DNA of 50,260 nt from sequence record PQ159479. One strand, written 5' to 3'. The notes below the pieces were generated by a model. It did not search any database. It worked only from the letters and a program-made list of their open reading frames with translations, and was not told the origin of the DNA. Position numbers and translations under genes: made by a program. The stretch comes from Escherichia phage Henu4_2. Of this stretch, positions 7,911 through 41,369 are shown piece after piece; within the stretch, counting starts at the first letter, position 1; each line of letters opens with the position of its first letter.

Positions 7911-8082
7911 ACTTACTATCAGGCGCATGGGTCGCAATTGCGGATCATGCAAGCAAGATTTTGAATGCGAGGTTGACGCAAGAGGCGCTCTTGAGGCGGC
8001 AGCAAGAGCTAAAGAGCTTTCGGGCGCTAACCCTGATACACACCAATTTTCAATTAATTACGTGAGGGAAATATCATGCTGA
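7894..8082 (+). CDS. hypothetical Cys-containing protein
   Basis: 62-aa ORF (MKWKVKL...CGSCKQDFEC). Confidence 0.4.
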   Translation: MKWKVKLTIRRMGRNCGSCKQDFECEVDARGALEAAARAKELSGANPDTHQFSINYVREISC

Positions 8083-8306
8083 TGTTTATTGCAGGTTTTG
8101 GTTTTTGTGCTTTTCTGGTGTTTATGATTTATCTTTGTATTTCGTGGGGTGTTCGCGAATGCACAAAAGATAATGAGTTAGCTGTTGCAATTTATAAAAA
8201 CAAAGATGACGTTTGGAAGGTTTCACGAAACTTTGAGAAAATCGCAAGCATTATTGAAAACCGCCGCAAGTTTGGCAAGCCTGGAAGCATCAAGTATATT
8301 GACTAA
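8076..8306 (+). CDS. membrane protein
   Basis: N-terminal TM MLMFIAGFGFCAFLVFMIYLCISWG; 76 aa. Confidence 0.4.
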   Translation: MLMFIAGFGFCAFLVFMIYLCISWGVRECTKDNELAVAIYKNKDDVWKVSRNFEKIASIIENRRKFGKPGSIKYID

Positions 8307-8322
8307 TCCAAAGCCGAAACAT

Positions 8323-8347
8323 AACCCGCCTTGCGCGGGTTTTTTTG
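8323..8347 (+). terminator. rho-independent terminator closing the left early region
   Basis: ACCCGC-CTTG-GCGGGT followed by TTTTTTT. Confidence 0.7.
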
Positions 8348-8393
8348 TGCATACAATTTAGCTATAATCACGCATCAACAGGAGGATTTTATT

Positions 8394-8918
8394 ATGGCTA
8401 AAAAAACAGAAGCGCCAGCGGCGGAAAGTCTAAACTTTAAAAAGTTATGGAATAAGCGATATTCCGATCTGGTAGGTAGTGAGATTGATAAACGCGCAAC
8501 GCTAACGCCGGAACAGGTCATGAATCTGATTGTTCAGTATTTTGAATGGGCGGAGCTAAACGCTATTAAAGCAGGTGAAACGGCATCATTTCAGGGGCGA
8601 GTGTATCAGGACACGATTCACAAGCCGCGTATTTTTACATGGGAAGGATTAAAGCTTTTTTGCGGTTTTTCCGGCACAGCACTAGCAAAGTGGAAACTTA
8701 AACCAGGCTATGATGTTGTTATTGAGTTTGCAGAATCGGTGATCAAAGAACAAAAATACCAGTTAGCGGCAAACGGAATGATTAACAGCACCATGATCGC
8801 AAAAGAGCTTGGTATTGATAAAGGCGACACGTTCAATATTAGCGCTAACGCCAAAGAGCAAGACAATACAGAAGAAGCGATGAAAAACGCAGTCGCAAGC
8901 GTCCTAAGTAAGATTTAA
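8394..8918 (+). CDS. terminase small subunit (by position)
   Basis: 174-aa ORF immediately upstream of TerL; TATAAT at 8363-8368 and RBS GGAGGA. Confidence 0.5.
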   Translation: MAKKTEAPAAESLNFKKLWNKRYSDLVGSEIDKRATLTPEQVMNLIVQYFEWAELNAIKAGETASFQGRVYQDTIHKPRIFTWEGLKLFCGFSGTALAKWKLKPGYDVVIEFAESVIKEQKYQLAANGMINSTMIAKELGIDKGDTFNISANAKEQDNTEEAMKNAVASVLSKI

Positions 8919-10554: not shown

Positions 10555-11850
10555 ATGAGCGACAAGGTAAAGGCCATTACTAAAGAAGATGGTTACAACG
10601 AAATTTTCGGATCTAAAGATGGAACGTTTAGGCCGAATGCTTTTTACATGCAAAGCGCGGCATTTAAAACGTTATCGCAATTTTATGAAGAAGATGGAAT
10701 GGCGCGGCGCATTGTAGATGTTATTCCAGAAGAAATGGTAACGCCTGGTTTTAAAGTTGACGGCGTGAAAAATGAAAAGTCTTTTAAATCGCGTTGGGAT
10801 GAATTGCGATTAAACGCTAAAATTATTGATGCGCTTTCATGGTCGCGTTTATTTGGCGGTTCTGCAATTCTTGCTGTTGTTGCTGATAACAGAATGCTGA
10901 AATCACCTGTAAAGCCTGGCGCACAACTTGAAGATATTCGCGTATATGATCGCTATCAGATCACCATTCAGGAACGTGAAACTAATGCGCGGAGTGTTCG
11001 TTACGGTGAGCCAAAACTTTATAAGATCTCACCTGGCGGAGATATACCGGAATTCTTTGTTCATTACTCGCGTATTTGCATCATTGATGGTGAGCGCGTA
11101 TCGAATGAAAAACGCCGTCAAAATGATGGTTGGGGTGCAAGCATTTTAAACAAGCGTTTGATTGAGGCGATTGTTGATTATAACTATTGCCAGGAATTAG
11201 CAACGCAATTGCTACGCCGAAAACAACAAGCAGTATGGAAAGCGCGTGATCTGGCTTTGATGTGCGACGATGAGGAAGGGCGCTATGCGGCGCGTTTGCG
11301 TTTGGCTCAGGTTGATGACGAAAGCGGAGTTGGTAAGGCAATTGGTATTGATGCCACCGATGAAGAATATGAGGTTCTCAATTCTGACGTTTCCGGCGTT
11401 CCAGAGTTCTTACAGGAAAAGATTGATCGAATTGTTGCGCTAACTGGCATTCATGAAATAATCCTCAAAAATAAGAACACTGGCGGCGTTTCAGCGAGTC
11501 AAAACACGGCGCTAGAGACTTTCTATAAGTTGATTGATCGCAAGCGCGGAGAGGATTACAAGCCAATTCTTGAATTCCTTTTGCCGTTCATGATCGCAGA
11601 AACGGAATGGTCTATTGAATTCGAACCGTTAAGCGTTCCGAGCGATAAGGACAAAGCTGAAATTATGGCTAAGAATGTTGAATCTGTTGTAAAATTGAAA
11701 GCTGAACAGGCGATTGATCTCAAAGAAACAAGAGACACTTTGCGATCCATTTGTCCAGATCTTAAAATCAGGGACAATGACAACATTGAATTGCCAGAGC
11801 CGGAAGATTTAGATCCAGAGCCAGGGCAAGAGGGGGGATTGAATAAATGA
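10555..11850 (+). CDS. portal protein
   Basis: about 430 aa between TerL and the Mu-F-like head protein; start chosen at ATG 10555 after GGGGG RBS (ORF is open from 10501). Confidence 0.7.
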   Translation: MSDKVKAITKEDGYNEIFGSKDGTFRPNAFYMQSAAFKTLSQFYEEDGMARRIVDVIPEEMVTPGFKVDGVKNEKSFKSRWDELRLNAKIIDALSWSRLFGGSAILAVVADNRMLKSPVKPGAQLEDIRVYDRYQITIQERETNARSVRYGEPKLYKISPGGDIPEFFVHYSRICIIDGERVSNEKRRQNDGWGASILNKRLIEAIVDYNYCQELATQLLRRKQQAVWKARDLALMCDDEEGRYAARLRLAQVDDESGVGKAIGIDATDEEYEVLNSDVSGVPEFLQEKIDRIVALTGIHEIILKNKNTGGVSASQNTALETFYKLIDRKRGEDYKPILEFLLPFMIAETEWSIEFEPLSVPSDKDKAEIMAKNVESVVKLKAEQAIDLKETRDTLRSICPDLKIRDNDNIELPEPEDLDPEPGQEGGLNK

Positions 11851-14159: not shown

Positions 14160-14600
14160 ATGTCTGATTACGGTTCTATAATAGGTATAGTTGAAAATGG
14201 GTGCTTGGTAGATTCAAGCCTTTATAATATAGATGGCTCGCCAGTTATGGATGTTTCAGCCGTGATAGGTAAGGCCGTATGTGTTGATCACATATCTTGC
14301 GGTTACAAAATAATCAGCCACAATTTTAATGAAAACTCAAAGCATTACGGAATCGTTACGCGTGATTATATGGATTTTTGCAAAGAATATTACGACGCCG
14401 GAGATCCGGTTAACGTAATAACTCATGGTCGAATTTGGGTAATCACTCAGGACGAACAGGATATTCCATCGTATAAAGATCCTGTTTTTGTTAAAGACAA
14501 TGGCTCTATATCAACAAGTGGATTTCCTACCAGTTGGTTTTTTACTGGCGAATACGTAAGATATTCACACGGATATATTTTACTATCAGTTCAGTTGTAG
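14160..14600 (+). CDS. structural protein, paralog B
   Basis: YNIDGSPVMD and HGRIWVI...PSYKDPVFVKDNGS mirror paralog A. Confidence 0.45.
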   Translation: MSDYGSIIGIVENGCLVDSSLYNIDGSPVMDVSAVIGKAVCVDHISCGYKIISHNFNENSKHYGIVTRDYMDFCKEYYDAGDPVNVITHGRIWVITQDEQDIPSYKDPVFVKDNGSISTSGFPTSWFFTGEYVRYSHGYILLSVQL

Positions 14601-14649
14601 TGTTCTAACACAAAAAACACTTGAACGTTTAACAAAAAATGCTATATTA

Positions 14650-14674
14650 AAGCCGTTATTATGACGGCTTTTCT
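14650..14674 (+). terminator. hairpin + T-run immediately upstream of capsid RBS
   Basis: AAGCCGTTATTATGACGGCTT + TTCT. Confidence 0.45.
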
Positions 14675-14689
14675 ATGAGGGGAAATATT

Positions 14690-15664
14690 ATGTCTAAAGA
14701 AATTAAATATGATGAATTTGAAGCAAACGTGATCGCCAACCATATGCAGTTACGCGGCGCTAAAAACGACGCATCTGATATGGGTATTTGGACGGCTCAA
14801 GAGCTTCATAAAATTAAGGCTCAAGCCTATGAAAAAGAATATCCGGCAGGTTCCGCACTGCGTGTATTCCCTGTAACGTCCGAGCTTTCCGATACAGATA
14901 AAACCTTTGAATATCAGACTTTCGACAAAGTAGGGCACGCAAAAATCATCGCTGATTATACTGATGATCTGCCAACTGTTGACGCGCTGATGACTTCTGA
15001 ATTTGGTAAAGTGTTCCGCCTGGGTAATGCGTTCCTGATTTCCATTGACGAAATCAAAGCAGGTCAACGCACTGGCAAGAGCCTTTCCACTCGCAAGGCC
15101 AACGCCGCACAGAATGCGCATGATCAGCTTGTAAACCACTTGGTTTTCAAAGGCTCTAAACCGCATAAAATTATCAGCGTGTTTGATCATCCAAACCTGA
15201 CAACTATCAACTCCGCAGGTTGGAACAACGCCGCAGGTACTGGTAAAAAGCCGGAAACCGCACAGGATGAATTAGAGCAAGCGATTGAAAAAATCGAAAC
15301 GCTGACCAACGGGCAGCACCGCGCTAATATGATCCTGATTCCGCCGTCAATGCGTAAAGTTCTGATGGTTCGTATGCCGGAAACAACCATGAGCTATCTT
15401 GATTATTTCAAGCAGCAGAATGGCGGTATCACTATCGAATCCATTTCCGAGCTTGAAGATATCGACGGCGCAGGTACTAAAGCGGCGCTGGTTTACGAAA
15501 AAGATCCAATGAACATGAGCATTGAGATTCCAGAAGCGTTTAACATGCTGACCGCGCAACCTAAAGACCTGCATTTCAAAGTGCCTTGCACCTCTAAATG
15601 TACTGGCCTGACGATTTACCGTCCGTTAACGCTGGTTCTGATTAAAGGTCTTGTAGTAGGCTGA
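14690..15664 (+). CDS. major capsid protein
   Basis: 325 aa, position in head module, RBS GAGGGGAAA, followed by a strong terminator. Confidence 0.65.
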   Translation: MSKEIKYDEFEANVIANHMQLRGAKNDASDMGIWTAQELHKIKAQAYEKEYPAGSALRVFPVTSELSDTDKTFEYQTFDKVGHAKIIADYTDDLPTVDALMTSEFGKVFRLGNAFLISIDEIKAGQRTGKSLSTRKANAAQNAHDQLVNHLVFKGSKPHKIISVFDHPNLTTINSAGWNNAAGTGKKPETAQDELEQAIEKIETLTNGQHRANMILIPPSMRKVLMVRMPETTMSYLDYFKQQNGGITIESISELEDIDGAGTKAALVYEKDPMNMSIEIPEAFNMLTAQPKDLHFKVPCTSKCTGLTIYRPLTLVLIKGLVVG

Positions 15665-39321: not shown

Positions 39322-39588
39322 ATGGAAAAGATTGAAACTATTGTTGAAAATGGCGTTGAATATCGACGCGTTGAATTAACTGAACGTGGTTTATGGTTGC
39401 TTTATCGCGCTATGGTGTGCGATGCGATAGAAAAGGCGAATGAAACTGAAACAGTAGGATCTGATTTGTGGATGTTCACAGATGTGCTTGATATGAGTTT
39501 TGATGAAACAAAAGAGCTTGTATTGAGCAAGTGGGAAGAAAAGATAAATCAAGATCTAAAAGAATTTTTAGCAGATCCGAATAAATAG
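39322..39588 (+). CDS. hypothetical protein
   Basis: 88-aa ORF, stop inside motif copy 11. Confidence 0.45.
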   Translation: MEKIETIVENGVEYRRVELTERGLWLLYRAMVCDAIEKANETETVGSDLWMFTDVLDMSFDETKELVLSKWEEKINQDLKEFLADPNK

Positions 39589-39628
39589 CACTTTTTGTTA
39601 AAAATGCCCCGCTTATGTGGGGCATAAT
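39584..39628 (+). promoter_or_regulatory. conserved early element copy 11 (stem ATGCCCC/GGGGCAT, CATAAT)
   Basis: ATAGCACTTTTTGTTAAAA; CATAAT; TTCAACGAAACGAAACGAGGA leader. Confidence 0.5.
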
Positions 39629-39660
39629 CATTTCAACGAAACGAAACGAGGATTTGTAAA

Positions 39661-39825
39661 ATGAAAATTGTTAATGTTGAATATTTCAAAGATGCTCAAT
39701 GGTTAGCAAGAGAATCTTTGTTTATGCTTGAGCGTAAAAACCCAAAAGTTATTGCGCAAATTCTTTGGAATGATGCTATGGAATTACTTAAAAAGGCTTA
39801 CGGTCATGAAAGTAACGAAGGGTAA
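39661..39825 (+). CDS. small hypothetical protein (54 aa)
   Basis: ATG after conserved leader and GAGGA RBS; below the ORF-track length cut-off. Confidence 0.4.
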   Translation: MKIVNVEYFKDAQWLARESLFMLERKNPKVIAQILWNDAMELLKKAYGHESNEG

Positions 39826-40048
39826 AAAGGAAACCTGGGAGTTAGCGAAAAAAGGCGGTCTTGATGAAGGGATCGCCAAAATAGCGCAATATTTCGATAT
39901 TAAAGACGTGTGCGTTATTGTCGGTGATGAAATGGCATATGTGGATGAAAAACCGCGCAAGGTTCATCGTGTTCCGGCAATTCCGACAACAATCGACTAT
40001 AAAGAAGTTATCAACAAAACCAAAGAGCAAAGGAAATATTACAAGTGA
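39806..40048 (+). CDS. hypothetical protein
   Basis: 81-aa ORF from ATG 39806 overlapping previous gene. Confidence 0.35.
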   Translation: MKVTKGKKETWELAKKGGLDEGIAKIAQYFDIKDVCVIVGDEMAYVDEKPRKVHRVPAIPTTIDYKEVINKTKEQRKYYK

Positions 40049-40141
40049 AAACAATTAAATTCATGTTTGCTGTTGTCTTGCCGCCAATGCTGGCATGGTT
40101 TATGATGTACGCCATTGTTATGAAATAAGAGGATTTGTGAA

Positions 40142-41257
40142 ATGAGTGCGGCAAAAATTACGGACGAACAACTTATTGCAGAAAGGGCAGCAGGTTTAAA
40201 ACTGCGTGAGATTGCTGAAAAGTACGGAATGAGCTTGCGACAGGTTGAGCACCGTCACAGCAAATTGGCTAAACGTGGGGAAATATCAACAATCGGATCG
40301 CCTGGCTTTGCTGTAATTGGCGAGTCAAAGTTAGTTGATAAGAATGGTAACACTAAACTAACATGGATTAAGACGCACAAAGACAAAGAGCAATTAGAGG
40401 CAATCATGCAAGCGGCTATGGCTGCATTTTCGGAAGAAGTGCCGCGCATCAAGCCGCAACCGGAAAAAATTACTGATTACTCGCAAACGCTGGCGTTATA
40501 TCCGATCTTTGATATCCATATTGGCGCAATGGCTCATAAGCATGAAAGCGGTGAGAATTACGACACGGCAACAGCGGAAAACGTAATGAATGAGTTTTTC
40601 GATTATGCAGTTGATAAAGCGCCGAATAGCGAAAAGGCCGTATTGCTGATTGGTGGTGATATGATTCACAGCGACGGATTAGAAGCCGTCACACCTGCAA
40701 GCGGTCACGTATTGGATCAGGATTCACGTTATGCAAAACTGGTTTATGTTGCCATTCGTGCCACGCGTAGAGCAGTAAGCCGTATGCTTGAAAAGCATAA
40801 AGAGGTTGAGATCCAGATCATTGAGGGTAATCACGACCAATCAGGAATGATCTGGCTACGTGCTGCAATGGCGGCGGCGTATGAAGATGAACCACGCGTT
40901 AATGTTGATGTTTCTCCGCGTGTAGTGCATCACACGCAATATGGAAAAACGTTCCTTGCTTATCATCATGGCCACACTGTACGCAAGCCAGAAACGCTTT
41001 TAATGATGTGTGCAGCGGATTGGCGGGAAGATTTCGGAAACTCCAATTCAATGTATGCGCATGTGGGGCATTGGCATCATCAGACAGTCACAGAAACGAG
41101 CCTGGGCATTGTTGAGGTTCATAGCACTATGGCGGCTAAAGATGCTTATGCGGCGCGTGGCGGTTGGCGTTCACGCCGTAGAGCGGCGGTAATTATCTAT
41201 GATAAGGAATATGGCGAGATAGGGCGCTTCATGTTCTACCCTGAAATGATTGCATAA
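40142..41257 (+). CDS. HTH + calcineurin-like metallophosphoesterase
   Basis: N-terminal HTH-like LKLREIAEKYGMSLRQVEHR; phosphoesterase motifs DIHIGA, GGDMIHSD, GNHD. Confidence 0.7.
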   Translation: MSAAKITDEQLIAERAAGLKLREIAEKYGMSLRQVEHRHSKLAKRGEISTIGSPGFAVIGESKLVDKNGNTKLTWIKTHKDKEQLEAIMQAAMAAFSEEVPRIKPQPEKITDYSQTLALYPIFDIHIGAMAHKHESGENYDTATAENVMNEFFDYAVDKAPNSEKAVLLIGGDMIHSDGLEAVTPASGHVLDQDSRYAKLVYVAIRATRRAVSRMLEKHKEVEIQIIEGNHDQSGMIWLRAAMAAAYEDEPRVNVDVSPRVVHHTQYGKTFLAYHHGHTVRKPETLLMMCAADWREDFGNSNSMYAHVGHWHHQTVTETSLGIVEVHSTMAAKDAYAARGGWRSRRRAAVIIYDKEYGEIGRFMFYPEMIA

Positions 41258-41369
41258 TTAAATTATCACATAAAAAGGCTGGCTAAATGCTGGCCTTTTT
41301 TTGTTTTTGTCGTTAACATAATCAGACTGTTTTTTGATATTGACTTTTTAATTTTTAAGGGATCTAGTT

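Follow-up and report, generated by a model that had tools for sequence, protein, structure and literature searches.

Mutants of phage T1 that are defective in host-DNA breakdown transduce better. Breakdown of the host genome is a trait of both T1 and TLS, and according to the TLS re-annotation the gene responsible has not been identified (PMC11447400). In two other phages this activity has been assigned to enzymes of the metallophosphoesterase (MPE) type. Phage T5 A1 is toxic when expressed alone, is both necessary and sufficient for digestion of the host chromosome, and works with the DNA-binding protein A2 (bioRxiv 10.64898/2026.04.02.716235). Gp48 of the cluster A mycobacteriophage A10ZJ24 is an early, host-toxic MPE with phosphodiesterase and DNase activities that breaks host genomic DNA (PMC12287305). 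[quoted passage not shown] In the same February 2026 preprint, frameshift mutants of bas01_0050 formed plaques, and lambda escapers of DRT7 carried mutations in gam, in parallel to those in bas01_0050. These findings imply that the gene is not needed for plaque formation, harms the host and renders the phage sensitive to a defence linked to DNA metabolism.

The gene examined here is an ortholog of bas01_0050 and lies at positions 40142-41257 (+ strand) of the window, by which we mean the whole 50,260-nucleotide stretch of DNA analysed, from Escherichia phage Henu4_2 (PQ159479). The window amounts to an essentially complete genome of a Tlsvirus (Drexlerviridae), collinear with that of phage Tls, in which the ortholog is gp66. 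The gene forms a single ATG-to-stop ORF of 371 amino acids plus the stop codon. Its DNA is 99.6% identical to that of Salmonella phages GJL01 and YSP2, and its protein matches the GJL01 "putative phosphoesterase" at 100% identity; bas01_0050 is syntenic and shares 59% identity over the full length. Residues 4-370 matched profile positions 2-389 of the 390 in PHROG 704 ("DNA repair exonuclease") with an E value of 8e-152. A tblastn search with the protein returned homologs in 2,036 phage records, while an exhaustive HMMER search at E ≤1e-3 returned 4,635 representatives of 50%-identity clusters. The gene is therefore real and is widely conserved in T1-like phages; the PHROG 704 match, the identical GJL01 protein and the thousands of homologs also establish that it is already catalogued. 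As an annotated family member it represents no new fusion and no new system; being a plain member of PHROG 704, it differs in nothing from Tls gp66, bas01_0050 or the GJL01 protein. The names attached to the family do not derive from biochemistry: the PHROG 704 name is an automatic label, and the "proof-reading exonuclease" given to gp66 in the 2024 TLS re-annotation was assigned by homology only (PMC11447400).

Two features of the database records deserve mention. In the records of Salmonella phage 36 (35784-36897) and phage Jk06, the ortholog appears as two or three separately annotated ORFs, the phage 36 match covering 1,114 nt against the 1,116 nt of the query. Such splits could reflect natural frameshifts or sequencing errors; if natural, they would fit with dispensability of the gene. 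Separately, near-identical T1-like sequence was found in the records of Streptococcus phage MBBL140, Campylobacter phages A143 and A110b, and Pseudomonas phage PsgS01F, which are probably laboratory T1-type contaminants or carry mislabelled hosts.

A sequence-only reading of the window had described the ORF as a helix-turn-helix (HTH) domain of about 50 residues fused to a calcineurin-like MPE. Domain searches and structure prediction recovered both parts. The HTH domain occupies residues ~1-50 (40142..40291, + strand), for which AlphaFold2 gave three N-terminal helices (residues 8-16, 21-28 and 32-44) at a pLDDT of ~77-85. The assignment is weak for the single protein, with sub-threshold matches to HTH_23 (E 0.0023), DUF6362 (E 0.001) and sigma70-ECF (E 0.011). 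The N-termini of 120 family representatives also matched HTH models, best Sigma70_r4_2 (1.5e-9) and GerE (2.4e-8), and the best PDB sequence match of the family profile was GerE (E 0.023). The profiles and the model suggest a domain of the sigma-70 region 4 / GerE-LuxR type that is conserved across the family and is predicted to bind DNA. It is followed by a linker module at residues ~55-110 (40304..40471, + strand), consisting of a beta-hairpin (58-65, 71-78) and a long helix (79-97), in which W75 is nearly invariant. A minority of homologs without the HTH keep this hairpin-helix linker, and the homolog of Campylobacter phage F356 begins at it. Across 146 representatives the median number of residues preceding motif I was 142, with nearly all members between 115 and 200. 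Because nearly all members carry such an N-terminal extension, the HTH plus MPE layout is ancestral to the family; the two domains do share one chain, as had been noted, but the word "fused" does not apply in the sense of a recent event. The toxicity of bas01_0050 could arise from this HTH instead of from catalysis.

The catalytic core extends over residues ~114-371 (40481..41254, + strand) and adopts the four-layer beta-sandwich MPE fold. All five motifs of the calcineurin-like MPE superfamily, DxH, GDxx(D/H), GNH(D/E), H and GHxH, are present, and their conservation was scored in 146 representatives with 30-57% identity to the Henu4_2 protein. The three motifs named in the sequence-only reading were all found, their metal-binding residues being retained in 142 to 146 of the 146 representatives: motif I, D124-I-H126 (40511..40519), in all 146; motif II, G172-D173-M-I-H176 (40655..40669), with D173 in 146 and H176 in 142; and motif III, G229-N230-H231-D232 (40826..40837), with N230 and H231 in 145. 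We identified two more, motif IV, H276-G-H278 (40967..40975), with H276 in 146/146, and motif V, G309-H310-W-H312-H313 (41066..41080), with H312 in 146/146 and H310 in 139/146. All five motifs lie on the + strand, and D124, H126, D173, H276 and H312 are invariant throughout the sample. The Pfam Metallophos model (PF00149) scored the protein at 15.0 bits, below its gathering cut-off of 21.5 (E 0.035), and matched 26 of the 120 family representatives at E ≤0.01. The family is thus a divergent MPE clade that is recognised through its motifs and fold. Searches of PDB sequences with either the single protein or the family profile returned no solved relative of the catalytic domain. A family-specific insertion of 24 residues follows motif II (residues 177-200, SDGLEAVTPASGHVLDQDSRYAKL; 40670..40741, + strand); within it T184 is invariant and D192 and R196 are nearly so, while its modelled structure has very low confidence (pLDDT 39-56).

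DxHxG, GDxxH and GNHD are the motif forms found in Mre11. In the comparison with known enzymes, the values obtained were 13.4 for the MJ0936 phosphodiesterase, 12.7 for SbcD, 12.5 for PolD DP1, 12.4 for the Pol delta B-subunit and 12.3 for Mre11, against 8.6 or lower for the PPP protein phosphatases. An hhalign comparison of the family profile with the T4 gp47 family covered 182 columns at E 3.3e-5, although with a probability of only 72%. The alignment placed residues 121-345 on gp47 residues 5-219, taking in motifs I, II, III and V as well as the C-terminal stretch TLAAxDAYAxRGGW / TLTAGDENDPRGFW. In hmmsearch, matches to PDB SbcD and Mre11 sequences were weak (E 0.65-2). Taken together, the fold and profile comparisons suggest that the protein lies nearest to the nuclease branch comprising Mre11/SbcD/T4 gp47 and PolD-DP1. 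It differs from Mre11, SbcD and gp47 by the N-terminal HTH and hairpin-helix module and by the insertion after motif II, which has no counterpart in gp47 in the family profile alignment. The capping domain that would follow the MPE core is also absent: the chain ends just 59 residues past motif V (H312 to residue 371), too few to accommodate one, and the model past residue 345 contains just two strands and a short helix, whereas gp47 runs ~120 residues beyond the aligned region. No Rad50/SbcC/gp46 ATPase partner is annotated in the collinear Tls genome. With neither a capping domain nor a Rad50-like partner, Mre11-style mechanics cannot simply be assumed.

Neither the lambda-type protein phosphatases nor T5 A1 are close to the protein. 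The lambda-type PPP signature, as in NinI, is GDxHG / GDxVDRG / GNHE. Neither this signature nor a PPP-like fold was found in the Henu4_2 protein. It is highly improbable that the enzyme is a protein Ser/Thr/Tyr phosphatase, as a positional analogue of lambda NinI (lambda-PP) would be. That proposal draws on the shared superfamily, on the annotation of some homologs as "protein phosphatase (phage lambda like)", and on position, as NinI also lies between replication and lysis genes and the present gene sits at a similar nin/Q-equivalent boundary. For T5 A1, hhalign against the family gave a probability of 19-21% over 20-36 columns only, with nothing over the core, and A1 matched PHROG 1745 only; a specific kinship with A1 was negative in both single-sequence and family alignments and was rejected. 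A1 and the Bas01 ortholog are alike in being phage proteins of metallophosphatase type, toxic alone and tied to DNA, but T5 requires A1 whereas the ortholog can be lost in Bas01, and the A1-A2 system pairs a metallophosphatase-type protein with a separate DNA-binding partner whereas here the HTH and MPE share one chain. A10ZJ24 gp48, likened to this family by its described activity, has motif I from residue 10 and so lacks the HTH and the linker.

A small-molecule phosphodiesterase of cyclic or linear nucleotides, Ap4A or (p)ppGpp-like signals, serving in counter-defence against nucleotide-signalling immunity or in salvage, would be a rather improbable identity for this protein. A conserved, predicted DNA-binding HTH is unexpected on such an enzyme, and the GDxxH and GNHD variants together with the gp47 profile match point to nucleases. 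Loss of the gene helps the phage against DRT7, where counter-defence would predict harm. No anti-defence signal was seen, and PADLOC defence-system models gave no match to the protein at E ≤0.1. Papers on the calcineurin-like defence enzymes Metis and PUA-Cal-HAD were set aside, as they concern host proteins and T-even denA and not this protein.

The DNA-metabolism genes of the window encode a helicase, Dam, RecE, Erf, SSB and a primase. The gene is the last in a rightward operon with the order helicase (35847), two small ORFs, Dam (38582), three small ORFs and the MPE gene. A Shine-Dalgarno sequence, GAGGA (40129..40133, + strand), lies 8 nt upstream of its ATG. The resemblance of this context to that of the small gene at 39661, pointed out in the sequence-only reading, is genuine within the window, where the 16-mers GAGGATTTGTAAAATG (39648-39663) and GAGGATTTGTGAAATG (40129-40144) are the sole two exact matches to a degenerate 16-mer; the orthologs of Tls and Bas01 do not share it. 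A shared regulatory element was rejected because of this absence, and the two contexts are read as two strong ribosome-binding sites. Directly upstream of the gene, a GTG-initiated small ORF (40046-40128, + strand), which has no annotation in YSP2, encodes a 27-residue hydrophobic peptide (VKTIKFMFAVVLPPMLAWFMMYAIVMK).

A 21-nt direct repeat, ATAGCACnnnTTGnTAAAA, occurs 20 times in the window, where chance would give 0.29 copies, and has already been described for phage TLS (PMC11447400). Its sites include 1192, 1602, 3610, 4743, 6179, 29837, 35148(-), 35769, 38227, 39585, 44641(-) and 49582(-); these copies share the strand of the genes beside them and are concentrated in the early arms and in the replication operon. 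Nearest upstream of the MPE gene is the copy ATAGCACTTTTTGTTAAAA (39585..39603, + strand), which heads the sub-unit 39661..41257. Between this copy and the gene at 39661 stands a GC-rich hairpin (39604-39628, ATGCCCC-GCTTATGT-GGGGCAT), which is not a typical terminator because no U-run follows it. Downstream, an intrinsic terminator with a 12-bp stem, a 5-nt loop and a U-run lies before the holin gene (41272..41308, + strand; RNA fold -22.9 kcal/mol, z = -3.78). This terminator closes the helicase-Dam-MPE transcription unit and stands between the MPE gene and those for holin, endolysin and spanin.

This arrangement bears on the proposal, raised in the sequence-only reading, that the protein regulates the early-to-late switch. 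In such a scheme the HTH would act on phage promoters or the 21-nt repeats, or on RNA polymerase as a mimic of sigma region 4, and would time the middle genes or the late lysis genes, the MPE being auxiliary. The resemblance of the HTH to sigma-70 region 4 and GerE is consistent with it, as are the 20 repeat copies, for which no binding protein is known, and the position of the gene just upstream of the holin-endolysin-spanin lysis cassette in 508 of 522 Drexlerviridae (PMC13164509) and, in other phages, frequently ahead of endolysin, holin or terminase genes. Against it, a separate promoter-like site accompanies the terminator before the holin gene, a separate putative regulator gene is present (Tls gp57), and homologs without the HTH exist. 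Every catalytic residue is strictly conserved, which shows that selection acts to keep the enzyme activity. Because frameshift mutants of the ortholog are viable and plaque, and a strong terminator precedes the lysis genes, an essential switch is unlikely, and we consider a primarily regulatory role of any kind very improbable.

The neighbourhoods of homologs were compared in 53 dereplicated loci drawn from viral contigs, prophages and annotated phages; a scan of genome contigs gave only 5 loci. No constant gene partner, whether Rad50-like, an immunity protein or a helicase, was found among the neighbours in the 53 loci. Endolysin/holin, portal/terminase, HNH and DnaB genes were over-represented downstream, and Holliday-junction resolvases and nucleotide kinases were among the upstream neighbours. 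The gene showed only a loose tendency to stand where DNA-metabolism genes meet lysis or packaging genes. In individual phages the homolog adjoins ligase and resolvase genes or thymidylate synthase, follows Q and precedes terminase, or comes behind the lysis genes. In temperate E. coli phages of the mEp010 type, its neighbours are an HTH_36 initiator-like gene on one side and a DnaB-type helicase on the other. Homologs 66-67% identical to the Henu4_2 protein are found inside the replication module of E. coli prophages and mEp010 (L003, L011, L012), where the gene order is cI-like repressor, HTH_36 protein, homolog, DnaB-type helicase and NinB, so that the homolog holds the slot expected for a helicase loader.

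Homing-endonuclease-type genes (HNH, HNH_3, T5orf172/DUF4379) directly adjoin the ortholog in several unrelated phages, at 39965-40636 in Tls (L002; endY), 14209-14694 in Bas01 (L013), 11070-11660 in mEp010 (L011), 8007-8516 in a Vibrio phage (L009) and 9042-10034 in L003; in the window, no such gene lies beside the MPE gene. This recurrence suggests that the ortholog is a repeated target of homing.

The protein might instead be a replisome accessory that takes no action on host DNA, either a PolD-DP1-like 3'-5' proofreading or flap exonuclease or a helicase-associated factor working with the phage helicase, the primase and host Pol III. We regard this as unlikely. Archaeal PolD DP1 and the eukaryotic polymerase B-subunits differ from the Henu4_2 protein, which has no OB-fold domain and no partner polymerase, and DNA polymerase is not encoded by T1-like phages (PMC11447400). 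Bas01 can do without the gene, the 53 loci share no conserved neighbour, and toxicity upon expression alone fits a free nuclease better.

The best-supported reading, to which we give an even chance, is an HTH-tethered, Mn-dependent nuclease that acts on DNA, is accessory in function and is co-expressed with the replication genes. The five invariant MPE motifs, the gp47 alignment, the family-wide HTH and the DNA-metabolism neighbours suggest it from sequence, and the precedents of T5 A1 and A10ZJ24 gp48, both toxic MPEs that degrade host DNA, would support it by analogy. The toxicity and the DRT7-escaper mutations of bas01_0050 and the host-genome degradation by T1 and TLS point the same way. 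The enzyme would be a phosphodiesterase with a binuclear metal centre, probably Mn2+, belonging to the Mre11/SbcD/gp47-like branch of nucleases. Its sigma-region-4/GerE-type HTH and hairpin-helix linker would tether it to DNA, the presumed substrate, and as the last gene of the rightward helicase-Dam operon it would be co-transcribed with the replication genes. The function would be accessory, not essential, and would proceed without a Rad50/SbcC partner. Overall, what the sequence-only reading observed was borne out, and its interpretation, which had included a DNA-targeted nuclease, is partly supported.

In the infected cell, such a nuclease might initiate or drive host-chromosome breakdown. 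Alternatively, it might trim DNA ends or structures for recombination-dependent replication with RecE, Erf and SSB. The DNA damage or ends so produced may be what DRT7 senses. Homologs in the early operons of temperate phages are hard to square with indiscriminate destruction of the host chromosome and favour, at least ancestrally, a more selective nuclease that processes ends or structures. More tentatively, the family could be the enzyme with which T1 and TLS degrade the host chromosome, namely a Rad50-free, HTH-guided, Mre11-like nuclease whose activity, through DNA ends or fragments, would switch on the DRT7/UG10 reverse-transcriptase defence. In a bolder variant, the sigma-region-4-like HTH may recognise the 21-nt repeats that head ~20 transcription units, steering the enzyme to or away from phage DNA.

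The Henu4_2 gene is itself an ordinary core gene, but it represents a very large family, ~4,600 clusters at 50% identity. Its function bears both on the old question of host-DNA breakdown by T1 and on the new question of DRT7.
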